Assembly: GCA_000993955.1 (NCBI GenBank)
Contig: LBZW01000001.1
Coordinates: 1 to 42,447 of the forward strand
Origin: Candidatus Nomurabacteria bacterium GW2011_GWA2_40_9
Lineage (GTDB): Bacteria; Patescibacteriota; Minisyncoccia; Phycocordibacterales; UBA9973
Direction of reading: 5' to 3'
Length of the DNA stretch: 42,447 nucleotides
Below, piece after piece: positions 543 through 38,019 of this stretch. The notes beneath the pieces are model-generated. The model did no database searches, was not told the DNA's origin, and saw only the letters and a list, made by a program, of their open reading frames with translations. Position 1 is the stretch's first letter; each line of letters opens with the position of its first letter. The position numbers and the translations under genes are program-made.

Positions 543-1217
543 ATGCCACGCAATGCAAGAGTTGACGTAGGAGGAGAAATTTATCATGTAATCAATCGTG
601 CAAACGGTTGTCTTCAGATATTTAACAAAGATGAAGATTATGAACTATTTGAAGAATTACTTTTTGAAACAAAAGAACTTTTTCATATGCGTATATTAGC
701 CTATTGTTTGATGCCAAATCATTTTCATTTAGTCCTATATCCTAAAAATGACGGGGATATGGGTTTATTTATGCATCGATTGAGTAATTCTCATACCAGA
801 AAAGTGCACGCACTCACAAATACAAATGGTAGTGGGCATTTGTATCAAGGTCGCTACAAATCTTTTCTCGTAGATAAAGAAAATTATCTTTCAGCGATTA
901 TTAAATATGTTGAGCGTAATCCAGTGCGAGCTAAGCTCTCTAAACTTTGTGAGGATTGGAAGTGGGGTAGTGCTTGGCTGCGTATCAGTGGAAAACTTGA
1001 GCAACATAAATTACTTGATCAAAAATCTTTTGATCTTCCAGATAATTATATTAAATGGATTAATATTTCTGAAGATGAAGATTTATTGAAAAATATTCGT
1101 GTTTCAGTAAAAAAAGGTGTTCCATATGGTAAAGAAAAATGGGTGGATAATATGGTATTGAAATACAAACTTGAATCAACCCTAAGATCCCAAGGAAGAC
1201 CAAGGAAAGATAGATGA
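543..1217 (+). CDS. IS200/RAYT-like HUH tyrosine (Y1) transposase
   Basis: 224 aa. HUH motif in LMPNHFHLVLYP; conserved YHVINRAN N-terminus; GHLYQGRYKS; catalytic-Tyr helix IIKYVERNPVRAKL. This pattern matches COG1943 / Y1_Tnp REP-associated transposases. The gene is flanked by inverted repeats. Confidence 0.8.
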   Translation: MPRNARVDVGGEIYHVINRANGCLQIFNKDEDYELFEELLFETKELFHMRILAYCLMPNHFHLVLYPKNDGDMGLFMHRLSNSHTRKVHALTNTNGSGHLYQGRYKSFLVDKENYLSAIIKYVERNPVRAKLSKLCEDWKWGSAWLRISGKLEQHKLLDQKSFDLPDNYIKWINISEDEDLLKNIRVSVKKGVPYGKEKWVDNMVLKYKLESTLRSQGRPRKDR

Positions 1218-3270: not shown

Positions 3271-4993
3271 TAATTCTAACTTTACAAGTAGAACCAAAAT
3301 TTTCTCTTTGTGCTTGCTTTTTTTTGCTTTTATTTTGATAAGTAAACTTTTTTTAGTTTCTGTGGTGCATGGCAAGAGTTATTCTAGTATTGCAAATCGT
3401 CAATATGTGACCCCCTCTTCAAACATCTCGGAACGAGGGTCAATATTTTTCGAACGCAAAGATGGTGAGTTAGTTTCTGCTGCAATGCAGGCAGTAGGTT
3501 TTAAAGTCACTATAGATCCGAGTCAGATAGTAAATGACATAGAAGCATATGAAAAACTATCTACAATCATAGAGATAGATAGAGATGAATTTTTGATAAA
3601 AGCAGGCAAGAAAAAAGACCCCTATGAAGAGATAATAAATAAAATAACCAAAGAGCAAGCAGACAAAGTGGGAGCCTTAAAAATTTCTGGAGTAAAAATA
3701 TCAGAAGAAAAATGGCGTTTTTATCCAGGGGGAAATTTGGCTTCGCACACTTTGGGATTTGTGGCTTACGAGGGTGATGAACTCGGGGGGCGCTACGGCA
3801 TAGAGAGAGAGTATGAGAATGTTCTGTCACGAGACAAAGACAATCCGTATGTAAATTTCTTTGCAGAAGTGTTTTCCAATTTAAATAAAAGTTTGTTTGA
3901 AAAAGAAATAAAGAAGGGAGATATTATCACCACCATAGAGCCCAATGTAGAAAACTTTTTAGAAAATGAATTGGAACTAGTGAGAGAAAAATATCAAGCA
4001 GATGCGATAGGGGGGATAATCATAAATCCTATGGATGGCTCTATCTACGCTATTTCCAGCAAGCCGGATTTTGATTTAAATAATTTTTCAAAAGTAAAAG
4101 ATGCTTCTAGTTTTTCTAACCCCATGATAGAAAATGTGCTTGAATTTGGTTCTGTGGTAAAGCCTCTAGTGATGGCGGCGGCACTAGACACCGGTGTGGT
4201 GAATGCAAATACGAGCTACAATGACACTGGTTCTGTAATGATAGAGAAAAAAGAAATTTTTAATTTTGACAAAAAAGATCGTGGTCCGGGGACAACTATG
4301 CAGGATGTACTCAGTCAATCTCTAAACACAGGTATGGTATATGTCTATCAACAGTTAGGAAAAAAAAATATGCATGATTATATGTTGTCGTACGGTATCA
4401 AAGAAAAAACTGGCATAGATTTGCCAAATGAGACGAGTGGATTGGTGTCAAACCTCACAGCAAATTTAAATAATAAACGCGAGATAGAATACGCAAATGT
4501 TGCCTTTGGTCAGGGTATAGCACTCACTCCTATAGAGATGGTGCGGGCACTTGCTTCACTTTCAAATGGGGGGAACTTGGTTGTGCCTCATGTAGTAGAT
4601 AGAATAAAATACCAAAGTGGCAAAGAAGAAAAAATAATTTATCCTACATCTAAAACAAAAATAAGTGAACAAACCGCAGAAGAAATAACTCGAATGCTCG
4701 TAACTGTGATGGATAAATCCCTGAAAGGTGGACTTGCAAAATTTGAACACCATAGCGTAGCTGTAAAGACAGGTACGGCACAGGTTGCAGACAATGTAGG
4801 AGGAGGGTATTATGAAGACAGGCACACACATTCGTTTTTCGGATATTTCCCTGCCTATGACCCTAAATTTATAGTTTTCTTGTATGCAGTAAATCCAAAA
4901 GGCGTACCTTATGCTTCTGTTACTTGGGCAGATCCATTTTTAAATATTACTAAATTTCTGCTCAATTATTATGAAGTTCCACCGGATAGATAA
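3260..4993 (+). CDS. ftsI: Penicillin-binding protein 2/3-type transpeptidase (FtsI-like)
   Basis: N-terminal TM; SxxK (GSVVKP), SxN (SQSLNTG), KTG (VKTGTA); dcw context. Confidence 0.9.
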   Translation: MKSNNSNFTSRTKIFSLCLLFFAFILISKLFLVSVVHGKSYSSIANRQYVTPSSNISERGSIFFERKDGELVSAAMQAVGFKVTIDPSQIVNDIEAYEKLSTIIEIDRDEFLIKAGKKKDPYEEIINKITKEQADKVGALKISGVKISEEKWRFYPGGNLASHTLGFVAYEGDELGGRYGIEREYENVLSRDKDNPYVNFFAEVFSNLNKSLFEKEIKKGDIITTIEPNVENFLENELELVREKYQADAIGGIIINPMDGSIYAISSKPDFDLNNFSKVKDASSFSNPMIENVLEFGSVVKPLVMAAALDTGVVNANTSYNDTGSVMIEKKEIFNFDKKDRGPGTTMQDVLSQSLNTGMVYVYQQLGKKNMHDYMLSYGIKEKTGIDLPNETSGLVSNLTANLNNKREIEYANVAFGQGIALTPIEMVRALASLSNGGNLVVPHVVDRIKYQSGKEEKIIYPTSKTKISEQTAEEITRMLVTVMDKSLKGGLAKFEHHSVAVKTGTAQVADNVGGGYYEDRHTHSFFGYFPAYDPKFIVFLYAVNPKGVPYASVTWADPFLNITKFLLNYYEVPPDR

Positions 4994-7618: not shown

Positions 7619-7648
7619 TTTTACATAAAATTACACTTTATTTCTCGA

Positions 7649-7690
7649 TTACCTAATCAAAACGGTCGTAAAAGTTAGGTAATTTGTTTT
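7649..7690 (+). repeat. 42-bp hairpin repeat, copy 1
   Basis: TTACCTAATCAAAACGGTCGTAAAAGTTAGGTAATTTGTTTT. An 8-bp stem TTACCTAA/TTAGGTAA with an 18-nt loop, followed by a T-tract. Lies in the divergent rmuC / PaaX-like intergenic region. Confidence 0.9.
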
Positions 7691-7710
7691 TGGTAGTGTA
7701 TAATAATGAT

Positions 7711-8316
7711 ATGGGAATTTTGGAGAAAGAAATAAAAATTAAAGATAAACGCAAAAATATTCAGAAAATAATTTTAAATACTATTTTTGCAGCTGGGATA
7801 CTTGGTGTGATGGTAGTAGCACCAAATGTTTTATCAGTTATAAAACAAATAGAAAAAGGAATAAAAAGAAAAAAGAATTTAAAATATTCTATCAATAGTT
7901 CTTTTGTACGACTCAGAGAGAAAGGGCTTATTGAAATAATAGAAGTAAATGGGAAAAGAGTTGCAAGGATAACACAAAAAGGGGAGTCGAAGTTGGATTT
8001 CTTGGATAGACATAATTTTAAATTAAAAATTCCAAAGAAATGGGATGGTCGTTGGAGAGTGGTGATATTTGATATAAAGGAAAGCAAAAAGAGAATAAGA
8101 GCACTTTTGAGGGTTACGCTTTCGCAGATTGGCTTTATTAGATTGCAAAATAGCGTTTGGGTTTATCCATATGATTGCGAGGACTTGGTCTCATTACTTA
8201 AGGCAGATTTTAAAATAGGTAGTGAGATTTTATATATGATAGTAGAAAAACTTGAAAATGATTGGTCCTTACGTAAAAAATTTAATTTACCTAATTCTGA
8301 CGGTCGTAAAAGTTAG
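7711..8316 (+). CDS. Membrane-anchored wHTH + PaaX-C/Cas2-fold domain protein
   Basis: N-terminal TM (IILNTIFAAGILGVMVVAPNVL); winged-helix-like segment (SFVRLREKGLIEIIEVNGKRVARITQKGESKL); WDGRWRVVIFDIKESKKRIRALLRVTLSQIGFIRLQNSVWVYPYD, which matches the PaaX C-terminal / Cas2-like beta-alpha-beta-beta-alpha-beta signature. Start taken at ATG 7711. The last 10 codons and the stop lie inside repeat copy 2. Confidence 0.5.
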   Translation: MGILEKEIKIKDKRKNIQKIILNTIFAAGILGVMVVAPNVLSVIKQIEKGIKRKKNLKYSINSSFVRLREKGLIEIIEVNGKRVARITQKGESKLDFLDRHNFKLKIPKKWDGRWRVVIFDIKESKKRIRALLRVTLSQIGFIRLQNSVWVYPYDCEDLVSLLKADFKIGSEILYMIVEKLENDWSLRKKFNLPNSDGRKS

Positions 8317-8328
8317 GTAATTTGTTTT
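8287..8328 (+). repeat. 42-bp hairpin repeat, copy 2
   Basis: TTACCTAATTCTGACGGTCGTAAAAGTTAGGTAATTTGTTTT. Differs from copy 1 only at 4 loop positions. Lies between the convergent PaaX-like and exonuclease genes. Confidence 0.9.
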
Positions 8329-12188: not shown

Positions 12189-13700
12189 ATGCAAGAAAAA
12201 AATTCTGAAAAATATTACACCACCATCGGGCTTGAAATACACGCAGAATTGAAGACAACTACAAAGATGTTTTGTAGTTGTAGAAATAACCCTGATGAAA
12301 CAAAACCAAATACAAATATCTGCCCTGTGTGCATGGCGCACCCTGGGGCATTGCCTGTAATAAATAAAAAAGCAGTTGAGAATGTGATAAGAGTTGGTCT
12401 GGCTATCGGTGCAGAGATTGCAGATTTTTCAGAATTTGATAGAAAGAATTATTTTTATCCCGACATCCCAAAAGGGTACCAGATTTCTCAATATAAATAC
12501 CCAATAGTAAAAGGTGGCAAACTAGCTGGTATGGATATCACTCGTATTCACTTAGAGGAAGATACAGCGAATAACAAACACCTGTCGGGTGTTGGACACC
12601 CGGAAATTCAGGACGAGTATTCACTCATTGACTTCAATCGTGCTGGCGTGCCACTGATGGAGCTTGTGACCGAGGCGCATACTTTTGAGACGAGTGAGGA
12701 GGCAGCAAAAGTTGCGAGTAATTTTGCAAAAGAATATCAGCTCCTCCTGCAGTATATAGATGCCTCAGAAGCGAATATGGAAAAAGGGGAGATGCGAGTG
12801 GAAGCAAATGTATCTGTCTCACCTGATAAAGATAAGAAATGGACTGCCTATGTGGAAGTAAAAAATTTAAACTCTTTCAAGAGCGTAGAAAAAGCTATCA
12901 AATATGAAGTAGAGCGAATGATAGAACTTTTTGAAGAAGGCAAAGAGAGTGAAATAGTAAAAGAAACTCGTGGCTTCGATGAAGCAAAGCAGAGGACTGT
13001 GTCTCAGCGTAAAAAGGAATCCAGTGAAGACTACAGATACTTCCCAGACCCAGACCTACCAAAGATGAAACTTCATGAAGCGTTTGATTTGGAAAAAGTG
13101 AAGCAAGAGTTACCTGAGTTGCCCATGCAAAAGCGCGTGCGATATAAGAATGATTTTGGAATAAAAGATGAAGATATAGAAATTTATATAAATGATAAAG
13201 AGCTTGCAAAATGGTTTGAAGAAGTTGCAAATCTTTTGTTTTCTCCCCCTGCCAGAGGGGGAGTGTCCGAAGGACGAGGGGGTGGGAGTGAAAAAATTAA
13301 AACAGCATCAAATTATATCACATCAGATTATTTGGGTATAAAGAAGTTCCAGCCAGAGGCAAGGCCTCTGGCTGCGACGAATTTTGCCGAGCTTATAAAT
13401 TTGGTTACAGAAAATAAAATCTCTTCTCGCGCTACAAAGGACATACTTGCGATGATAGTGATAGATGATGCGTCTCCATTAAAAATAGCAACAGAGAAAA
13501 ATTTGTTACAAAAAAATGATGAAGGCGAACTAAAAGGTATAGTAGAAAAAATACTTGCAGAAAATCAGCAAGTAGTGGCTACATACAAAGGCGGTAAAGA
13601 AAATGCTCTTATGTCCCTAGTGGGTAAAATAATAAAAGAAACAAATGGCTCTGCCAATCCACAGGTGGTAATTAAATTATTAAAAGAGTTGATAAAATAA
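12189..13700 (+). CDS. gatB: Asp/Glu-tRNA(Asn/Gln) amidotransferase subunit B
   Basis: GLEIHAEL, CPVCMAHPGALPV, RKNYFYPD, HLEEDT, FNRAGVPLMELVTE, and a C-terminal YqeY-like tail. TATAAT at 12175-12180 lies 8 nt before the ATG. Confidence 0.95.
   Translation: MQEKNSEKYYTTIGLEIHAELKTTTKMFCSCRNNPDETKPNTNICPVCMAHPGALPVINKKAVENVIRVGLAIGAEIADFSEFDRKNYFYPDIPKGYQISQYKYPIVKGGKLAGMDITRIHLEEDTANNKHLSGVGHPEIQDEYSLIDFNRAGVPLMELVTEAHTFETSEEAAKVASNFAKEYQLLLQYIDASEANMEKGEMRVEANVSVSPDKDKKWTAYVEVKNLNSFKSVEKAIKYEVERMIELFEEGKESEIVKETRGFDEAKQRTVSQRKKESSEDYRYFPDPDLPKMKLHEAFDLEKVKQELPELPMQKRVRYKNDFGIKDEDIEIYINDKELAKWFEEVANLLFSPPARGGVSEGRGGGSEKIKTASNYITSDYLGIKKFQPEARPLAATNFAELINLVTENKISSRATKDILAMIVIDDASPLKIATEKNLLQKNDEGELKGIVEKILAENQQVVATYKGGKENALMSLVGKIIKETNGSANPQVVIKLLKELIK
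12585..12603. repeat. Palindromic element family A, single unit, in frame in gatB
   Basis: TCGGGTGTTGGACACCCGG: a 7-bp stem. Matches the reverse complement of the intergenic copy 32881-32899 at 18 of 19 positions. Encodes LSGVGHPE between HLEEDT and the conserved YSLIDFNR. Confidence 0.85.
13243..13283. repeat. Palindromic element family E, in frame in gatB
   Basis: CTCCCCC-TGCCAGA-GGGGGAG-TG-TCC-GAA-GGA-CG-AGGGGGT. Same 41-nt architecture as 15025-15065 on the other strand. Encodes SPPARGGVSEGRGGGS. Confidence 0.85.
13350..13374. repeat. Palindromic element family C, single unit, in frame in gatB
   Basis: CAGCCAGAGGC-AAG-GCCTCTGGCTG: an 11-bp perfect stem. Encodes QPEARPLAA. Confidence 0.9.
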
Positions 13701-14656: not shown

Positions 14657-16528
14657 ATGGAAGAAATTTTAAAAAAAGATTTAAAACAAGAAATACAAAA
14701 ATTTTTTAAAGGGGATGTGGAAGATGGGGAAGAGACTCTCTCAAAGTATTCTAGGGATGCGAGTATTTTTGAAATTCGACCACAGTTGGTGCTTTTTCCA
14801 AAAGATACAGAAGATGTGAAAAGTTTAGTAAAGTGGGTCAGTGAAAATTGCGGTAGGCAAGACCTACCACAATTATCTATTACTTGTAGATGTGCAGGGA
14901 CGGATATGTCAGGCGGTGCTATAGGTGAATCTATTATCTTGGATTTTACGAGGTACATGAATAAGTTGATTGCATTTTCTCCCCTCCTTGTGGAGGAGGG
15001 GGTAGGGGGTGGTGATTCAAAATTACCCCCTCGCCCTTCGGGCACTCCCCCTTATCAAGGGGGAGAGGAAAACACAATCACGGTTGAACCTGGTATGTTT
15101 TATAGAGATTTTGAAAAAATAACTTTATCTAAAGGAATGATTTTGCCTTGTTATACTGCATCGAAAAGTTTAAATGCTATGGGTGGTATGTATGGAAATA
15201 ATTCTGCCGGAGAGCGAACACTCAAATACGGCAAAACTGACAATTATATCTTGGAATCAAAAGTAGTTTTCGGAGACGGGAATGAATATGTGGTGAAGCC
15301 ACTGACGGAAGAAGAATTGAACAAAAAAATATCTCAGAATGATTTTGAGGGAAATATTTATAAAAATATTTATGAGCTTATACAAAATAACCAAGAAGAA
15401 ATAAAAAATGCCAAGCCAAAAGTACACAAAAATTCTGCTGGGTATTATGTATGGAACGTGATGGGAGTAAATACGCAGGATGTGAAAAATTCTGCCGTCT
15501 TTACCCTTCCCGGAGTACCGGGTGGGACCTACGCCGATCAGGATTTTTCACATCCTGCGTATTTTGATTTAAACAAACTTCTCGTCGGCTCTCAGGGCAC
15601 ACTTGGCATAGCGACAGAAATTACTTTTAAATTAGTGCCAAATCCAAAGTACTCAAAACTTGTAGCAGTATTTATGAATGACCTGGCACCACTTGGGAAT
15701 CTCGTAGATGAGATTTTGGAATTAAATCCAGAGACGTTGGAAGCTTATGATGACAAGACTATGAAGCTCGCTGTCAGGTTTTTCCCAGATTTTTTGAAAA
15801 ATAAAGGGTTTATAGGCATGATAAAATTTATGTGGAGCTTCTTACCAGAACTCGGGATGACGATTACGGGAGGATTCCCTAAGCTTATTCTTCTGGCTGA
15901 ATTTGCCGGAGAAAATAATCTCGAAGTGCAGATAAAATGCAAAGCCCTGCAAGAAAAAATAAAACATTTTAACCTAAAAGTTCATATCACACATTCTACT
16001 GCTGAATCAAATAAATATTGGGACATTAGACGGGAGAGTTTTGCATTACTTCGCAAGCATGTAGCCGGCAAGCACACTGCGCCATTCATAGATGACATCA
16101 TAGTTCGTCCGGAATTCTTGCCGAAGTTTATTCCCCAGTTGAATGAGATCTTGAGAAAATATGATCTGACTTATACTATCGCAGGGCATGCAGGAGATGG
16201 AAATTTTCACATCATACCGCTCATGAATTTCTCTAGGCCTGATATGGGGCAGATAATTATGGAGCTATCAGAAAAGGTATATGACTTGGTTTTGAAATAC
16301 GAAGGCTCTATCACAGCAGAGCACAATGACGGCATTATCCGTACGCCATTCTTACAAAAAATGTACGGTGAGAAAATAATAGAAATATTTAAAGAAATAA
16401 AAAACATCTTTGATCTAAAATATATTTTGAACCCTGGCAAAAAAGTCCCCATAGAAGATGGCCAAGGCTCTAAAGAATTTATATTATCTCATATATATAA
16501 GGAGCATACGACGGTACACAAAGTCTAA
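14657..16528 (+). CDS. FAD-binding oxidoreductase (GlcD / D-lactate dehydrogenase family)
   Basis: N-terminal FAD_binding_4-like region (RCAGTDMSGGAIG), LVGSQGTLGIATEITFKL, and C-terminal HAGDGNFHI..GSITAEHNDG motifs. Carries two inserted repeat elements. Confidence 0.8.
   Translation: MEEILKKDLKQEIQKFFKGDVEDGEETLSKYSRDASIFEIRPQLVLFPKDTEDVKSLVKWVSENCGRQDLPQLSITCRCAGTDMSGGAIGESIILDFTRYMNKLIAFSPLLVEEGVGGGDSKLPPRPSGTPPYQGGEENTITVEPGMFYRDFEKITLSKGMILPCYTASKSLNAMGGMYGNNSAGERTLKYGKTDNYILESKVVFGDGNEYVVKPLTEEELNKKISQNDFEGNIYKNIYELIQNNQEEIKNAKPKVHKNSAGYYVWNVMGVNTQDVKNSAVFTLPGVPGGTYADQDFSHPAYFDLNKLLVGSQGTLGIATEITFKLVPNPKYSKLVAVFMNDLAPLGNLVDEILELNPETLEAYDDKTMKLAVRFFPDFLKNKGFIGMIKFMWSFLPELGMTITGGFPKLILLAEFAGENNLEVQIKCKALQEKIKHFNLKVHITHSTAESNKYWDIRRESFALLRKHVAGKHTAPFIDDIIVRPEFLPKFIPQLNEILRKYDLTYTIAGHAGDGNFHIIPLMNFSRPDMGQIIMELSEKVYDLVLKYEGSITAEHNDGIIRTPFLQKMYGEKIIEIFKEIKNIFDLKYILNPGKKVPIEDGQGSKEFILSHIYKEHTTVHKV
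14979..15065. repeat. Composite palindromic insertion: E-prime unit (14979-15012) plus family E unit in reverse orientation (15025-15065), in frame in the FAD oxidase
   Basis: CTCCCCTCC-TTGT-GGAGGAGGGG-GTAGGGGGTGG resembles the atpD copy. The reverse complement of 15025-15065 is CTCCCCC-TTGATAA-GGGGGAG-TG-CCC-GAA-GGG-CG-AGGGGGT. Encodes SPLLVEEGVGGGDSKLPPRPSGTPPYQGGE. Confidence 0.85.
15469..15564. repeat. 96-nt MITE-like element with 22-bp perfect terminal inverted repeats, in frame in the FAD oxidase
   Basis: AAATACGCAGGATGTGAAAAAT (15469-15490) and ATTTTTCACATCCTGCGTATTT (15543-15564) are exact reverse complements. The centre carries the GC hairpin CCCGG-AGTA-CCGGG. 96 nt equals 32 codons. 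Confidence 0.85.
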
Positions 16529-22038: not shown

Positions 22039-22329
22039 ATGGAAACAGAAAATTCAAAAAACAATAGTGCTATTTGGAGACCTGTGATTCTTTTTTATGC
22101 CAAGACAACATCTTGGATTATATTTCCGTTGATTTTAGGAGTATTGCTTGCAAAATATATCAGCAAAACTACTAGCAGTCAGATTTTATTTTTTGTTATA
22201 ATAATTTTGGGTTTTATGATAACATGTTTTGGTATTTATAAAGAAGTGAAAGTATATAAAAGTACTTTAGATAAACAAGACCCACCTTCGCACAAGGCTA
22301 CGGATGGGCAAGTAAAAAATGGCAAATAA
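22039..22329 (+). CDS. Small 2-TM protein, AtpI/AtpZ-like by position
   Basis: 96 aa, two hydrophobic helices. Lies immediately upstream of and overlapping atpB. Confidence 0.4.
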   Translation: METENSKNNSAIWRPVILFYAKTTSWIIFPLILGVLLAKYISKTTSSQILFFVIIILGFMITCFGIYKEVKVYKSTLDKQDPPSHKATDGQVKNGK

Positions 22330-23221
22330 TTTAGAACATAATGGAGAGGTAGTAGAGGAGACAAGTCACGAAGTGACTATCTATGCAGAGCCGATTTTTC
22401 ATGTGGGTAATTTTGCTATCACAAACTCGCTTTTTACTACTTGGCTTGCAGTGCTTTTGATTGCTATATTTTCTCTCGTTATCCGATTAAATCTCAAAAA
22501 AGTTCCAGGGAAATTACAAAATATTTTTGAAGTTATGCTCGAGGGTGCTATGTCTCTCACTGATCAAGTCACAAATGACAGAAAAATAACGAATAAAATT
22601 TTTCCTTTAGTATTTTCTCTTTTTGTATTTATTTTAATAAATAATTGGATCGGGCTTTTGCCTTTTATTTCTGCTATTGGTTTTACGGTTGTTGAAAGTG
22701 GGCAAAATGTTTTTGTTCCTCTTTTTCGTGCGGGGACTGCGGATATCAACACCACCCTTGCTTTGTCGCTTATGATCATTGTCGCTTCAAATCTATTTGG
22801 CATACTCACTATCGGGCTCTGGAAACTTTTTAATAAATATGTTAATCTAAAAGCACTTGGTGAGATATTTACCAAGTTTAAAAAGGACAAGACTGTGGTC
22901 ATCGTATCTCCAATTTCTGTGTTTGTAGGGTTGCTTGAACTCATAGGAGAAATGGCAAAAATCGCATCGCTTTCTTTTCGTCTTTTTGGTAATGTTTTTG
23001 CAGGAGAAGTATTGCTCGCTTCTATGTCGGCAATATTTTTGTATATTTTACCGGGGCCGTTTTTGTTCCTTGAAGTTTTCATAGGACTCATTCAAGCATT
23101 GATATTTTCTTTGCTTGGGGCTGTGTATTTTACCATCGCAGCGCAGGATCATAATGAACACGAGGAGTATGAAACGGTGAGAGCTTTAGACTCTCATGAG
23201 AGTCTAAAGCTCTCACCGTAA
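22319..23221 (+). CDS. atpB: F0F1 ATP synthase subunit a
   Basis: Multi-TM, with the conserved Arg helix LSFRLFGNVFAGE. The C-terminal 15 aa are encoded by palindrome B. Confidence 0.9.
   Translation: MANNLEHNGEVVEETSHEVTIYAEPIFHVGNFAITNSLFTTWLAVLLIAIFSLVIRLNLKKVPGKLQNIFEVMLEGAMSLTDQVTNDRKITNKIFPLVFSLFVFILINNWIGLLPFISAIGFTVVESGQNVFVPLFRAGTADINTTLALSLMIIVASNLFGILTIGLWKLFNKYVNLKALGEIFTKFKKDKTVVIVSPISVFVGLLELIGEMAKIASLSFRLFGNVFAGEVLLASMSAIFLYILPGPFLFLEVFIGLIQALIFSLLGAVYFTIAAQDHNEHEEYETVRALDSHESLKLSP
23175..23218. repeat. Palindromic element family B forming the 3' end of atpB
   Basis: CGGTGAGAGCTTTAGACTCTC-AT-GAGAGTCTAAAGCTCTCACCG: a 44-nt perfect palindrome ending 0 nt before the TAA stop. 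Encodes TVRALDSHESLKLSP. Confidence 0.92.
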
Positions 23222-23266
23222 AGTTATTATAAGTTAGTCGAAATTATTATTAGTTTTTAATTTTAA

Positions 23267-23521
<255 letters not shown>

Positions 23522-25968: not shown

Positions 25969-26916
25969 ATGACCGGAACAAAAGAAATTAAAAGAAGAAT
26001 AAAGAGTGTGAAGAACACAAAGAAGATAACCAAGGCGATGGAGCTAGTGGCTGCTTCGAAGATGAAGCGCGCAGTTTCTAAGACTCTCGCATCTCGTGTG
26101 TATGCAAATTATTCTTGGGAGCTTTTGACTTCTGTTTCAGCAAAACTTGAAGAGGTGACACACCCATTTTTTACTCCTGCCCGCAATGCTACGCATAGCG
26201 TTGCAGGTGGGGAAAATAAAACAGGTAAAACTTTGATAGTTCTCATCACTTCAAACAGAGGTTTGTGCGGAGCGTACAATTCTCAAGTCATCAAGAAAAC
26301 TATTTTAAAACTAAAATCTTTAGAAAATGAAGAAGTTGATTTCATAACCCTTGGCAAAAAAGGCGACGGCACTATGCGCAGAGTAGGGCAGAATATCGTG
26401 GCATCTTTTATTGAATTGCCAGATATTATTTCTTTATCTGATATCACAGCTGTGTCTAACTTTTTAACTAGTGAATATAAAATAGGAAATTATAAAAAAG
26501 TCTATGTGGCATATACAGACTTTGTATCAGCACTGACTCAAAAAGCACAGATCAGAAAGCTCTTGCCAGTGTCTAAAGAAGAATTGAAAGAAGTAATAGA
26601 CGGTCTAGATTCCCCCAAAGCCTTGCTTTTGGAAAATCCCCAAAGCAAGGCTTTGGGGTCAACATATTTGTTCGAAGGTGATATAAATAAACTCATAGAA
26701 ACGCTGGCAGAAAAACTAGTAAAGATGCAGATATATCAGATGTTGTTAGAGTCCAATGCTTCCGAACAGTCAAGCAGAATGCTTTCAATGAAAAATGCCG
26801 GAGACGCAGCAGGAGAGATGATCAATGATTTGACCTTGGTATTCAACAAAGCAAGACAGGCAAATATTACCAGAGAAATAAGTGAGATTAGTGCCGGTAT
26901 GGCAAGTGTGAGTTGA
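25969..26916 (+). CDS. atpG: F0F1 ATP synthase subunit gamma
   Basis: IKRRIKSVKNTKKITKAMELVAASKM N-terminus and NKARQANITREISEI C-terminus. Contains two inserted palindromes. Confidence 0.95.
   Translation: MTGTKEIKRRIKSVKNTKKITKAMELVAASKMKRAVSKTLASRVYANYSWELLTSVSAKLEEVTHPFFTPARNATHSVAGGENKTGKTLIVLITSNRGLCGAYNSQVIKKTILKLKSLENEEVDFITLGKKGDGTMRRVGQNIVASFIELPDIISLSDITAVSNFLTSEYKIGNYKKVYVAYTDFVSALTQKAQIRKLLPVSKEELKEVIDGLDSPKALLLENPQSKALGSTYLFEGDINKLIETLAEKLVKMQIYQMLLESNASEQSSRMLSMKNAGDAAGEMINDLTLVFNKARQANITREISEISAGMASVS
26176..26212. repeat. Palindromic element family D, in frame in atpG
   Basis: CCTGCCCGCAATGCT-ACGCAT-AGCGTTGCAGGTGGGG. Folds on the sense strand with 14 pairs, 3 of them G-U. 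Encodes PARNATHSVAGGE. Confidence 0.8.
26613..26658. repeat. Palindromic element family C/G, inverted dimer, in frame in atpG
   Basis: CCCCAAAGCCTTGCTTTTGG-AAAATCC-CCAAAGCAAGGCTTTGGGG: a 19-bp stem with one bulged T. Encodes SPKALLLENPQSKALG. Confidence 0.88.
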
Positions 26917-28549: not shown

Positions 28550-29029
28550 ATGTCAAAGCAATTAAAACTAAAAATAGTAACTCCAGAAAAATTGGTTCTA
28601 GAAGAGCTTGTTGATGAAGTGATTATCCCTACTACAGAAGGGGAGATTGCTGTGTTGCCTGAACACATACCTATAGTTGCTGGACTCAAATCAGGAGATG
28701 TTGTCGGCATAGTAAACGGCGAGCATATTCCTTTTGCTGTCGTTGGAGGGTTCGTAGAAGTGAAATATTTACCAGAGGCAAGGCCTCTGTCTGCCAGAGG
28801 CCTTGCCTCTGGTATTACTGAAGTAGTGATTCTCGCTGATTTTGCAGAACATGTATCAGAACTTTCTGATGATGCTGTAACAAAAGCAAAAGCTCGTGCC
28901 GAAGAACTACGCAAACAAGCAGAAAACAAAGAAGTAGTAGACTTTGAACACTTTGAGTCCGAACTCGAGCGCGCTCTAACCAGAGTCAAAATCGCTGACA
29001 AGTGGAGAACTAGAAAGTATAGGAAATAA
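28550..29029 (+). CDS. atpC: F0F1 ATP synthase subunit epsilon
   Basis: LKIVTPEKLV..VIIPTTEGEIAVLPEHIPIVAGLKSG.., GGFVEV.., and a C-terminal helical hairpin. Carries a 15-codon palindrome insertion. Confidence 0.88.
   Translation: MSKQLKLKIVTPEKLVLEELVDEVIIPTTEGEIAVLPEHIPIVAGLKSGDVVGIVNGEHIPFAVVGGFVEVKYLPEARPLSARGLASGITEVVILADFAEHVSELSDDAVTKAKARAEELRKQAENKEVVDFEHFESELERALTRVKIADKWRTRKYRK
28770..28814. repeat. Palindromic element family C, inverted dimer, exactly 15 codons, in frame in atpC
   Basis: TACCAGAGGCAAGGCCTCTG-TCTGC-CAGAGGCCTTGCCTCTGGTA: a 20-bp perfect stem. Each arm contains the gatB unit CCAGAGGC-AAG-GCCTCTG. Encodes (Y)LPEARPLSARGLASG(I). Confidence 0.92.
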
Positions 29030-29794: not shown

Positions 29795-31777
29795 TTACAG
29801 CAAATTTTCTGGATCTATCAGCACTCTAAAATTAGAAGATATTTTATTTAAAGACAAAAGTTTTCTATAGAGGTCTTCCTCGATAGAAGCAGATGCAGAG
29901 AGTATAGGCAAAGACCATTTTTTAGGATCTGCTTTTATTAACATATTTACTGTATTTTTGTCTTTACTACTCTTTCTGAAACCACTGTAAAATACAGGGT
30001 TGTAATCTTTGAATATTTCACTCAAATTTTCTTTTGTCTTAGATGAATCTGTGTTGCTTTCTAAATAAGTAACTTTGATAAATCTAGAATATGGGGGATA
30101 GAGCATAGATTTTCTGTCTTCGAGTTCAGTCCTGATAAATTCTAATAGATTACTATTTTTTATGGCAAGCAGTGCCGAGTCTTTGTCGTTCTTTGTTTGG
30201 ATTATCAATTTATTTTTTGTTTTAGAAAGCATCAGGAGTATGAGTTGAATTATTTTTTCACTCATTTTAAAATTTGGGATACTCCAGAGTGAATCAAAAG
30301 AAGCAACGATACAGGTGTCTATTTGGTTTTTCATATAAAAAAGTGCTATCTCTGTGCCTATGAGTATAGTATTTTCTCCTGTCTCATATTCTGTAATTAT
30401 CTTTAGAGCACCCTTGGCTGTCTTTGCTGTGTCTTTGTCTAGTTTTAATATTTTAATGTGATCTAATTTTTCTTTTTTTAATTCTTCATACACTGTATCT
30501 ATACCTATGCCGAGTGGTACCAGATTCCAACTGTCGCATTTTACACATTTAACCTTCGTATTTTTGCTTGTGCCACATCTGTTGCAGACAAATACTCTCT
30601 TTTTTTTGTCTGGAGAGTGGTGCAGGACAACAGGAGTGGAGCATTCATCACAGCTTACTGTTTCTCCGCAATCTCTACATATAGTATAAGTAGCCAGCCC
30701 TTTTCGAAGAGAGAAAATAAAAACTTTCTCTTTTTGTTCTAGAGCACTTTTCAATTCTGCTATAGTTTCAGTCATCAACACCTTAAATTTGTTTTTTCTA
30801 CTCAATATTTCTATTTTTCCATCAAAAGAAATACGAAAAGACATGGGATGAACTTCCCCTAGTCCGTCTATCTCACGCCTAGCTATACTTTCAAAGCGTA
30901 AGAGGCTATCCGCCAAGATAAATTTTGCATTTATTTTAGAAGCAAAAATTTCAGTAAAAATTCGTAAATCAAAGTAGGGTTTGGCTATCATTTTATACCC
31001 ATTTCCGCTCTCGTGTTCTAAAATAATTGTTTCTATATCTCTTCTGTCTATAGATAGGTATGGGGCAGTACCGATAATCAAAATTGGATGCTCTTCTTTT
31101 ATGATATTTTCTATCTTTTCCATTTGTTTCTTTGCACTATACCCTCCATGGATAGAAATAGTAAATTGTTCAATACCCTTGGACAGGTACCCATACCAGT
31201 CGTCTATGTCATTTTTAGTGGGTAGTACTATAAAAACTGATTTTTTTTTAGCAAAATTACTTCTGATTAGGATTTTATAATAATCTATACGTTCTTCCAG
31301 TTTAGCTTGAAACAATAATTTTTCATTTTTTATCAGTGAGAGCTTTAGACTCTCTCTAGAGTCTAAAGCTCTCACTGAAAGTTCTTCTTTGTTTTGTTCA
31401 TTTTTTAATAGCTTGTTTTTAATTAATTCAGCAAATCTATCGTATTCTTCTTTTAAAATATTTGGGATGAGAGATGTGACCCCGTCGCTGTTGTTTTGAA
31501 CAAAATATTTACTACACAAAAACACAGATTCTAGAAATTCAGATTTAAAAATAGAGCCCTCTTTTATACTAAGTATTTTCTTTAGATTAAAATCCATGTC
31601 TTTTATATTTCTCTTTGCGTCAGTTACGTCTTCGGTAAAGACTACTAACCCCAACATGTTTTTATTGCGGAGAGATATAGTAACGATACTCCCATTTGGT
31701 ATGTCTTTTATTGAAAAATAGGTTAAATTTTCTTTCCAAAGTCCTTTTCTGAATGGGATTACCGTAACTATTTTCAT
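29795..31777 (-). CDS. priA: PriA-like primosomal protein N' with degenerate ATPase motifs
   Basis: PriA architecture with the Cys-rich Zn module (CRDCGETVSCDECSTPVV..CNRCG..CVKCDS). The expected Walker A, DExH and motif VI positions read LFQAKLEERIDYY, ILEHESGNGYK and LLMLSKTKNK. Confidence 0.75.
   Translation of the reverse strand: MKIVTVIPFRKGLWKENLTYFSIKDIPNGSIVTISLRNKNMLGLVVFTEDVTDAKRNIKDMDFNLKKILSIKEGSIFKSEFLESVFLCSKYFVQNNSDGVTSLIPNILKEEYDRFAELIKNKLLKNEQNKEELSVRALDSRESLKLSLIKNEKLLFQAKLEERIDYYKILIRSNFAKKKSVFIVLPTKNDIDDWYGYLSKGIEQFTISIHGGYSAKKQMEKIENIIKEEHPILIIGTAPYLSIDRRDIETIILEHESGNGYKMIAKPYFDLRIFTEIFASKINAKFILADSLLRFESIARREIDGLGEVHPMSFRISFDGKIEILSRKNKFKVLMTETIAELKSALEQKEKVFIFSLRKGLATYTICRDCGETVSCDECSTPVVLHHSPDKKKRVFVCNRCGTSKNTKVKCVKCDSWNLVPLGIGIDTVYEELKKEKLDHIKILKLDKDTAKTAKGALKIITEYETGENTILIGTEIALFYMKNQIDTCIVASFDSLWSIPNFKMSEKIIQLILLMLSKTKNKLIIQTKNDKDSALLAIKNSNLLEFIRTELEDRKSMLYPPYSRFIKVTYLESNTDSSKTKENLSEIFKDYNPVFYSGFRKSSKDKNTVNMLIKADPKKWSLPILSASASIEEDLYRKLLSLNKISSNFRVLIDPENLL
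31333..31378. repeat. Palindromic element family B, in frame in priA
   Basis: TCAGTGAGAGCTTTAGACTCT-CTCT-AGAGTCTAAAGCTCTCACTGA: a 21-bp perfect stem. The core GTGAGAGCTTTAGACTCT is identical to the atpB copy. On the minus strand it encodes SVRALDSRESLKLSL. Confidence 0.92.
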
Positions 31778-32880: not shown

Positions 32881-32899
32881 TCGGGTGTCCAACACCCGA
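32881..32899. repeat. Palindromic element family A, single unit, intergenic between mreB and holB
   Basis: TCGGGTGTCCAACACCCGA, 5 nt after the mreB stop. Matches the reverse complement of the gatB copy at 18 of 19 positions. Confidence 0.85.
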
Positions 32900-36813: not shown

Positions 36814-36869
36814 TCCACATGTCGGACATAGGGTCGGTCATTTTTTTTAGTCCCTATGTCCGACATGTG
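36814..36869. repeat. 56-nt palindrome (family F) in the perM-cysS spacer
   Basis: CCACATGTCGGACATAGGG (36814-36832), 18-nt loop, CCCTATGTCCGACATGTGG (36851-36869): a perfect 19-bp stem. Each arm contains the near-palindrome ATGTC(G/C)GACAT. Confidence 0.9.
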
Positions 36870-36876
36870 GTCTTAT

Positions 36877-37890: not shown

Positions 37891-37933
37891 GATGATTATA
37901 TTATATCAGAATATTTTTATAAAAAAAGCAAAT

Positions 37934-37967
37934 TTACCCAACTCTGACGGTCGTAAAAGTTAGGTAA
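37934..37967 (+). repeat. 42-bp hairpin repeat, copy 3 (diverged)
   Basis: TTACCCAACTCTGACGGTCGTAAAAGTTAGGTAA, 44 bp upstream of the perM start on the minus strand. This is the same relative position as copy 1 to rmuC. Confidence 0.85.
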
Positions 37968-38019
37968 TATTTTAAATACAAAAATTTGCATAAAAAACAG
38001 TTTTTGCTATACTTTAGTT

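Follow-up and report, generated by a model that had tools for sequence, protein, structure and literature searches.

Introduction

Repetitive extragenic palindromic sequences (REPs), their inverted doublets (REP doublets forming hairpins, REPINs) and the REP-associated tyrosine transposases (RAYTs) are well described (Nunvar, 2010, PMC2817692; Bertels and Rainey, 2011, PMC3116915; Bertels, 2017, PMC5581495). Unlike insertion sequences (ISs), RAYTs are reported to be inherited vertically in conserved gene neighbourhoods (Bertels, 2017, PMC5581495). REPs and REP dimers of the GTAG/CGTC class are also found in-frame within genes of Opitutus terrae and other organisms, where many of the hosts are replication or repair genes and the dimers encode about 20–30 residues; these intragenic REPs have been likened to the Rickettsia palindromic elements (RPEs) (Di Nocera, 2013, PMC3733652). 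In the literature that we searched, no study of REP/RAYT systems or of palindromic insertions in Patescibacteria, or the Candidate Phyla Radiation (CPR), was found. Here we describe two long palindromes, one at the end of atpB, encoding the F0 subunit a of ATP synthase, and one inside a priA homologue, in a stretch of 42,447 nucleotides from Candidatus Nomurabacteria bacterium GW2011_GWA2_40_9 (contig LBZW01000001.1, positions 1 to 42,447; 37% GC), which as a whole we call the window. Both are built from a short hairpin, family B below, which belongs to a clade of IS200-like Y1/HUH (RAYT-like) transposases widespread in Patescibacteria. The palindromes themselves are most probably REPIN-like doublets of this RAYT-linked REP hairpin, inserted in-frame and mobilised by a Y1 transposase. 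Wherever a homologue of AtpB, of PriA or of the transposase carries a name, that name belongs to the Patescibacteria (Paceibacteria, Nomurabacteria or Parcubacteria).

Palindromes in atpB and priA

The first copy lies at 23174–23219, has as a palindrome no strand of its own, and covers the last 14 codons of atpB (22319–23221, plus strand; Pfam PF00119, ATP-synt_A, E 7.8e-38) together with one base of the stop codon. The initial annotation had recognised a perfect palindrome of 44 nt at the atpB stop (23175–23218), which is real and gains one further A/T pair on each side, so that two 23-nt arms (23174–23196 and 23197–23219), 100% complementary and with no spacer, meet at an AT centre in a perfect palindrome of 46 nt. 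Its last T (23219) opens the stop codon TAA (23219–23221), and 51 nt separate the end of atpB from the start of atpE (23273–23521, plus strand; F0 subunit c, PF00137, ATP-synt_C). Each arm was also said to hold a small hairpin, GAGAG-CTTTAGA-CTCTC; it is present and turns out to be the actual repeat unit of the family. The left unit core (23179–23195, plus strand) has the loop CTTTAGA and follows the consensus derived from 94 single copies, while the right core (23198–23214, minus strand) is the inverted copy and reads GAGAG-TCTAAAG-CTCTC on the plus strand.

The second copy (31333–31378, likewise without a strand of its own) lies in-frame inside the open reading frame (ORF) at 29795–31777 on the minus strand. 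The protein encoded there is a homologue of PriA (primosomal protein N'-like), as its orthologues are named primosomal protein N' and it matches PriA structures in the PDB at E 2e-17. The 21-bp stem and CTCT loop proposed for this position agree with what we find, namely two arms of 21 nt (31333–31353 and 31358–31378), 100% complementary, with CTCT between them. The core common to both copies is equally well founded: the shared 18-mer GTGAGAGCTTTAGACTCT occurs four times in the window, in both arms of both copies, against 0.06 occurrences expected, and a count of four was reached in none of 100 shuffles. The two genes, on opposite strands, indeed encode near-identical peptides from the element, VRALDSHESLKLSP as the C-terminal tail of AtpB (residues 287–300; 23177–23218, plus strand) and VRALDSRESLKLSL in a linker of PriA (residues 135–148; 31334–31375, minus strand). 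As RNA, each copy is predicted to fold into one long hairpin, at -38.2 kcal/mol (z -9.6) for the first and -37.0 kcal/mol (z -8.3) for the second. The atpB copy is identical across independent assemblies from four samples; two of these contigs extend as far as priA, and the copy there is likewise identical. The palindromes are therefore not an assembly artefact. An intrinsic terminator at the end of atpB was considered and dropped, as there is no T-run and no terminator prediction at 23174–23230, where the tail reads AAAGTTATTATAAG.

The repeat unit and its distribution

An exact 19-mer, GTGAGAGCTTTAGACTCTC, served as the search key and was scanned first in one genome per species and then in metagenomes. 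It matched 91 stretches, 18 from species-representative genomes and 73 from metagenomes, and all 18 that carry a name are from Patescibacteria. Most family-B copies are single hairpins rather than doublets. The unit is 25 nt long, cAGTGAGAG-CTTTAGA-CTCTCACTg, with a 9-bp stem (CAGTGAGAG/CTCTCACTG) and the 7-nt loop CTTTAGA; in an alignment of 94 distinct single copies, conservation spans cAGTGAGAGCTTTAGACTCTCACTg and falls to background beyond it. Its predicted folding energy is -12.6 kcal/mol as RNA and -7.7 kcal/mol as DNA. The doublets in the window, two in 42 kb, are two such units placed head to head with a 2–4 nt spacer and shortened inner stems. The CTTTAGA unit comes first in all 17 doublet rows from contigs other than the window's own (some 15 of them distinct, and fewer independent insertions than that, three being at a single atpG site), and this polarity matches the REP(+)–gene–REP(-) order at the transposase loci described below. 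A suppressor tRNA, suggested by the resemblance of CTTTAGA to an anticodon loop (U33, UUA), was rejected: neither ARAGORN nor Rfam gave a match at the hairpin positions in 18 loci.

Other Patescibacteria carry family-B copies in both orientations, in many genes as well as between genes, so the view that the palindromes represent a dispersed repeat element is borne out. The initial annotation had singled out, as the pattern that would speak for a convergent or ancestral peptide instead, the same tail in AtpB and PriA orthologues of genomes lacking any other copy; this is not what is found, because the core recurs at many other sites, genic and intergenic alike. Nor do the copies keep to the extragenic location expected of REPs: the two in the window and many elsewhere are in-frame parts of verified genes. 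Of the three reading frames on either strand, the unit leaves two open, and the peptides seen in genes (VRALDS, ESFRLS, ESLKLS and ESKAL) correspond to its open frames. Verified hosts of in-frame copies include a GT4 glycosyltransferase, where the copy sits in the inter-domain linker, PurH, HolB and SecF, as well as an M23 peptidase and a T2SS-F protein with copies near the N-terminus, and atpG in three lineages. An in-frame single hairpin (..FLSESLKLSLH..) also occupies the same position of a reverse transcriptase (RVT_1) at six loci (L026, L036, L037, L044, L069 and L086), and a reverse-transcriptase element could be a vehicle that carries the hairpin between lineages.

The hairpin is linked to a Y1/HUH transposase

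At one of the loci (L009) a hairpin is found 42 nt upstream of a 222-residue ORF beginning MRKETLTTGEYYHIYNRG, and a second hairpin sits at its stop codon. The ORF is an IS200-like transposase (Pfam Y1_Tnp, 32.7 bits against a cut-off of 23). A tblastn search of the 91 loci, which had been picked by the 19-mer alone, placed a homologue of this transposase, 65–82% identical, next to the hairpin in about 20 of them. At least 15 distinct loci share a layout of three hairpins, with one hairpin(+) at -36 to -53 before the ATG, a second hairpin(+) in-frame within the transposase coding sequence at +170/176, and a hairpin(-) at +664 to +685, directly after the stop. At E<=1e-5 the family numbers 2159 members, some of them labelled 'REP element-mobilizing transposase RayT' by JGI, and the HUH motif (H-F-H) and the tyrosine (Y..N.Y) are invariant in it. 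An AlphaFold model of the transposase (mean predicted local distance difference test, pLDDT, of 83) has IS608 TnpA (2a6m) as its best fold match, and by TM-score its best match is the E. coli RAYT on a REP hairpin (4er8; 0.48 normalised by the query and 0.62 by the target). The low-confidence segment of the model corresponds to the loop encoded by the REP.

Two paralogues about 60% identical (P0322 and P0341, by their locus tags from one metagenome-assembled genome, MAG) keep the three-hairpin layout with different stems, CCAGATAGCG-CTTTAG-GCGCTATCTGG and CAGAG-TCTAAAG-CTCTG. Since each paralogue has its own stems in the same layout, hairpin and transposase covary. Although the proteins have diverged by 25–35%, their loci sort into three groups of conserved synteny, which fits vertical inheritance of a domesticated gene.

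The hairpin inside the transposase gene was looked at separately. It encodes the peptide VRALDSH at +170 (L076, L087, L088, L098, L073 and other loci) and falls, in the family-B transposase, within an insertion of about 30 residues, which is missing from the window's own Y1 transposase. The paralogues carry the hairpin of their own family at the same spot (ESKAL, APKAL). A hairpin in this position may indicate self-regulation. As to which locus could serve the window, L081 and L028, from the same or sister samples, were discarded as cognate transposase loci given their GC content of 0.51–0.53 against 0.37.

Insertion into the AtpB tail

The tails of AtpB orthologues are variable and rich in His and Glu (for example ..KELAQV and ..LVHV). 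A comparison of AtpB C-termini among relatives, as had been proposed, found the element-encoded tail only in the closest orthologue (P0002, 88% identity), in which it ends ..EMVRALD; orthologues P0003–P0060 are without it. In the DNA encoding P0002 (L005) the doublet occupies the same site of atpB, its centre is 3 nt shorter and the stop codon lies inside the element. In two relatives at 80% and 83% AtpB identity (L100 and L102) the element is absent and the 3' untranslated region downstream is homologous. Since the relatives at 80–83% are without the element and L005 has it, its insertion dates to the ancestor that L005 shares with the window species. The suggestion that it supplied both the tail of AtpB and the context of its stop thus holds up, with an old tail replaced and a new stop set, and with relatives at 80–83% lacking the element.

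Two further observations concern the atp operon. In L005 a PemK-type toxin gene (3958–4416) lies between atpA and atpG, and the window has no such gene. The atpG of the window was tried as a clean empty site for comparison with the atpG doublets of L022, L055 and L056, and was set aside, as these lineages are too diverged for insertion boundaries to be drawn.

Insertion into the PriA linker

Orthologues of PriA (55–60% identity), the other set of relatives proposed for comparison, lack the element, and their linker is hypervariable at that point; the contig of the 88% relative (L005) ends before the priA linker. The window PriA was modelled with AlphaFold (pLDDT 83), and pLDDT drops below 50 in a single segment, residues 132–149, which is the insert. 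Copy 2 occupies a disordered linker that joins the N-terminal, DNA-binding portion of the protein to its helicase core. Unrelated perfect palindromes are found in the same linker of other Paceibacteria (L109, 661–698, and L110, 673–712), one of them AGCGAGGCAAGACCTAAC-GT-GTTAGGTCTTGCCTCGCT and another an AAGGACAGTCCTT doublet. The PriA linker is a permissive site that has been invaded repeatedly.

Seven residues separate the end of the insert from LLFQAKLEERI, which aligns with the Walker A block of E. coli PriA; the canonical motif is absent. In the window and in Paceibacteria orthologues (residues ~150–165 and ~250–260) LLFQA(K/P)LE(E/D)RI occupies the expected position of Walker A, and LEHE stands where DEEH would be. 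The ATPase motifs of the PriA helicase look degenerate across the clade. Of the statement that the priA copy lies just upstream of the expected Walker A, the position stands, and it is to be read as positional only, since the canonical Walker A is itself degenerate.

Proposed mechanism

We propose that the hairpin or its doublet is moved in trans by a RAYT-like Y1 transposase whose gene lies in another part of the genome (candidate L073). E. coli TnpA(REP) and IS608 TnpA carry out transposition through single-stranded DNA intermediates. By analogy with these enzymes, the transposase would bind the folded hairpin on single-stranded DNA, cut and rejoin it, and in this way hairpins or doublets would be dispersed to new sites. 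Because intergenic space is very small in these genomes, many copies would land in genes. Purifying selection would then leave those that preserve the frame in tolerant places, such as disordered tails and linkers. In AtpB, a doublet would have gone into the variable, His/Glu-rich tail in the common ancestor with the 88% relative, replacing that tail and bringing a new stop. In PriA, it would have entered the hypervariable disordered linker, where, as in the AtpB tail, 14 residues would be translated as a floppy passenger. Mobilisation of the hairpin and its current mobility are drawn from analogy, and we likewise infer that the transposase is the catalyst, that L073 would hold the cognate gene and that the insertions would be neutral to the host.

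Several observations weigh against this proposal. At the base of the hairpin, the 94 single copies have neither a GTAG nor a CGTC tag, the flanks c-A-G-T ... A-C-T-g being part of the stem, and beside it they have no conserved target motif, tetra- and pentanucleotides included. Copy number looks low, the exact 19-mer being found about 1–4 times per contig of 100–300 kb, and in 1–2 stretches per contig of 100–326 kb; classical REPs typically reach tens to hundreds of copies per genome. For the L009 transposase, the best NCBIfam model is REP_Tyr_transpos, with a score below the cut-off (24.5 against 80), and a PDB sequence search with the transposase profile gave marginal matches only, at E 0.46 to ISDra2 TnpA. 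No transposase of the family-B clade is found within the window, and L073, from the same JGI sample and with a GC content of 0.36 against 0.37 for the window, is a candidate only. No polymorphism between filled and empty sites was seen within one species. Finally, the outer stem of the atpB copy differs between the window and L005 on both sides at once (ACGG..CCGT in one, ATGG..CCAT in the other), a two-sided change that fits either selection on and maintenance of the hairpin or conversion between the arms.

Alternative explanations

The best surviving alternative, which we consider improbable, is that the hairpins are the ends of an autonomous IS of the IS200/IS605 type and that the dispersed copies are derivatives resembling miniature inverted-repeat transposable elements (MITEs), of the palindrome-associated transposable element (PATE) type, instead of products of a domesticated RAYT/REPIN system. 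It agrees with the assignment of the transposase to Y1_Tnp and with IS608 TnpA as its top structural match, with the REP_Tyr_transpos score below the cut-off and the low copy number, and with the presence of several paralogues per genome, as in the MAG that has both P0322 and P0341. However, transposases that have diverged by 25–35% are still found in three conserved neighbourhoods, a pattern of vertical inheritance rather than of hopping; the flanking hairpins are one inverted unit, where an IS would have a left end different from the right; the copies have no conserved tetra- or pentanucleotide target beside them; and the copies linked to a transposase are far fewer than the dispersed ones.

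It is less likely again that the atpB copy is primarily a selected RNA stem-loop that sets the ratio of subunits a and c, whether through protection of the mRNA, a processing site or ribosome stalling at the stop codon. E. coli REPs near stop codons are reported to affect mRNA stability and translation, which counts in favour of such a role. The fold at -38 kcal/mol, its end on the stop codon 51 nt before atpE, and the retention of the element at the same site of the 88% relative with the compensatory change on both sides of the outer stem all point the same way, and many REPs have been argued to act as RNA elements (Di Nocera, 2013, PMC3733652). On the other hand, the same element is found mid-gene in priA on the other strand, in unrelated genes and in intergenic DNA, so the hairpin is no peculiarity of the atp operon. 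It is dispensable to the AtpB orthologues at 80–83% identity, which lack it, T-run and terminator prediction are both absent, and the stop lies inside the element in the 88% relative, so that the geometry of the stop is not conserved. In addition to insertion of a RAYT-linked doublet, the atpB copy may have a secondary role as an mRNA hairpin at the atpB/atpE junction, which the data do not require.

That the palindromes arose from local template-switch errors in replication, their shared sequence being an ancestral or convergent peptide motif, is highly implausible: some distant AtpB tails (..VARA, ..VVRA) do resemble the start of VRALDS and other perfect palindromes exist in the PriA linker of other lineages, but the 19-mer is identical in both orientations, several frames, non-coding DNA and many genera and is tied to a transposase gene, a pattern that a cause at the peptide level cannot yield.

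Other repeats in the window

The window also holds at least five other families of REP-like hairpins, as singles and as doublets of about 45 nt with hairpin arms (CAGAGGC-AAG-GCCTCTG, CCAAAGC-CTT-GCTTTGG, GGGTGT-TGG-ACACCC, CTCCCCC..GGGGGAG and one around ATGTCGGACAT). They lie at 2026–2042, 2246–2292, 12586–12602, 13243–13263, 13350–13374, 14981–15001, 15045–15065, 26613–26658, 28770–28814, 32881–32899 and 36815–36870. With the two family-B doublets counted, 11 of the 13 REP-like elements in the 42-kb window are inside genes, the genes hit being rsmH, gatB, that of an FAD-linked oxidase, atpB, atpG, atpC and priA.

The window has a Y1_Tnp gene of its own (543–1217, plus strand; PF01797, E 4e-14), 31% identical to the family-B transposase and flanked by inverted GGGGACAGCCACC/GGTGGCTGTCCCC repeats (494–506 on one side, 1229–1241 and 1278–1290 on the other). 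A 49-nt tandem duplication (1200–1297) and then a run of short CCTTATT-like repeats are found in the same region (494–1335). Elsewhere, a 52-nt repeat with the hairpin TTACCTAA..TTAGGTAA brackets (7637–8326) a 210-residue ORF (7684–8316, plus strand) with a PaaX central/Cas2-like domain (PF20803, E 3.7e-20), and a third copy of this repeat is located 29.6 kb away at 37922–37973.

Implications

If the favoured explanation is correct, an odd palindromic coding segment in two essential genes is accounted for by a concrete mechanism, a transposase-linked hairpin repeat, and REP/RAYT biology gains both a new group of hosts, the Candidate Phyla Radiation, and a new habitat, coding sequence in addition to intergenic DNA. 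Such copies would offer a natural experiment on the load of selfish DNA that essential proteins tolerate under genome compaction, in parallel to the Rickettsia RPEs. They also call for caution, as segments of this kind inflate the apparent divergence of CPR proteins, create spurious shared 'motifs' between unrelated proteins and can mislead alignments, domain boundaries and calls of gene ends. A broader idea, which we offer tentatively, is that Patescibacteria may hold a radiation of RAYT-like paralogues, each with a hairpin family living mostly in genes, and that their activity might be a main source of lineage-specific insertions, linkers and tails in CPR proteins. Were this true, stems would differ by family around a common CTTTAG loop, the intragenic life would come from the near absence of intergenic room, and the in-frame copy within the transposase gene would be a sign of self-regulation, or else of obligatory hitch-hiking.

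Comparison with known systems

With IS200/IS605 elements and PATEs, the family-B system has in common the Y1/HUH fold (2a6m, 2vjv) and DNA hairpins as recognition elements. Unlike IS200/IS605, its ends are identical inverted units, no conserved target was seen beside the copies and the transposase is at syntenic loci. The likeness to the Rickettsia RPEs is one of lifestyle: in both, a reduced genome carries palindromic repeats in-frame in its essential genes, and their translation yields surface or linker segments that leave function intact. RPE-1 of Rickettsia measures 100–150 bp and is not known to have a dedicated transposase, whereas the family-B elements of 44–46 bp are unrelated in sequence, linked to a Y1 transposase and, by their named matches, all from Patescibacteria.

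As in the intragenic REPs of the Opitutus type, singles and dimers are found in-frame in genes for known proteins. Family B differs from these in being of an untagged class, in living in Patescibacteria with their tiny genomes, and in having ATP synthase subunits and the transposase itself among its hosts. The closest parallels are with REP/REPIN-RAYT systems such as E. coli TnpA(REP) with its bacterial interspersed mosaic elements (BIMEs) and the Pseudomonas REPINs: a short hairpin unit, inverted doublets that fold as one long hairpin, a Y1/HUH transposase gene that lies, within a conserved neighbourhood, between inverted copies of the hairpin belonging to it, and a hairpin that covaries with the paralogue. 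In contrast to the classical systems, family B is often intragenic and translated, has no GTAG/CGTC tag and is apparently low in copy number; a third in-frame copy is located inside the transposase gene, and the 7-nt loop is kept across paralogous families while the stems change. In-frame intragenic REPs as such are already known, and what is new here is an untagged, apparently low-copy and strongly coding form, which is present in the transposase gene too and keeps its loop across paralogous families.

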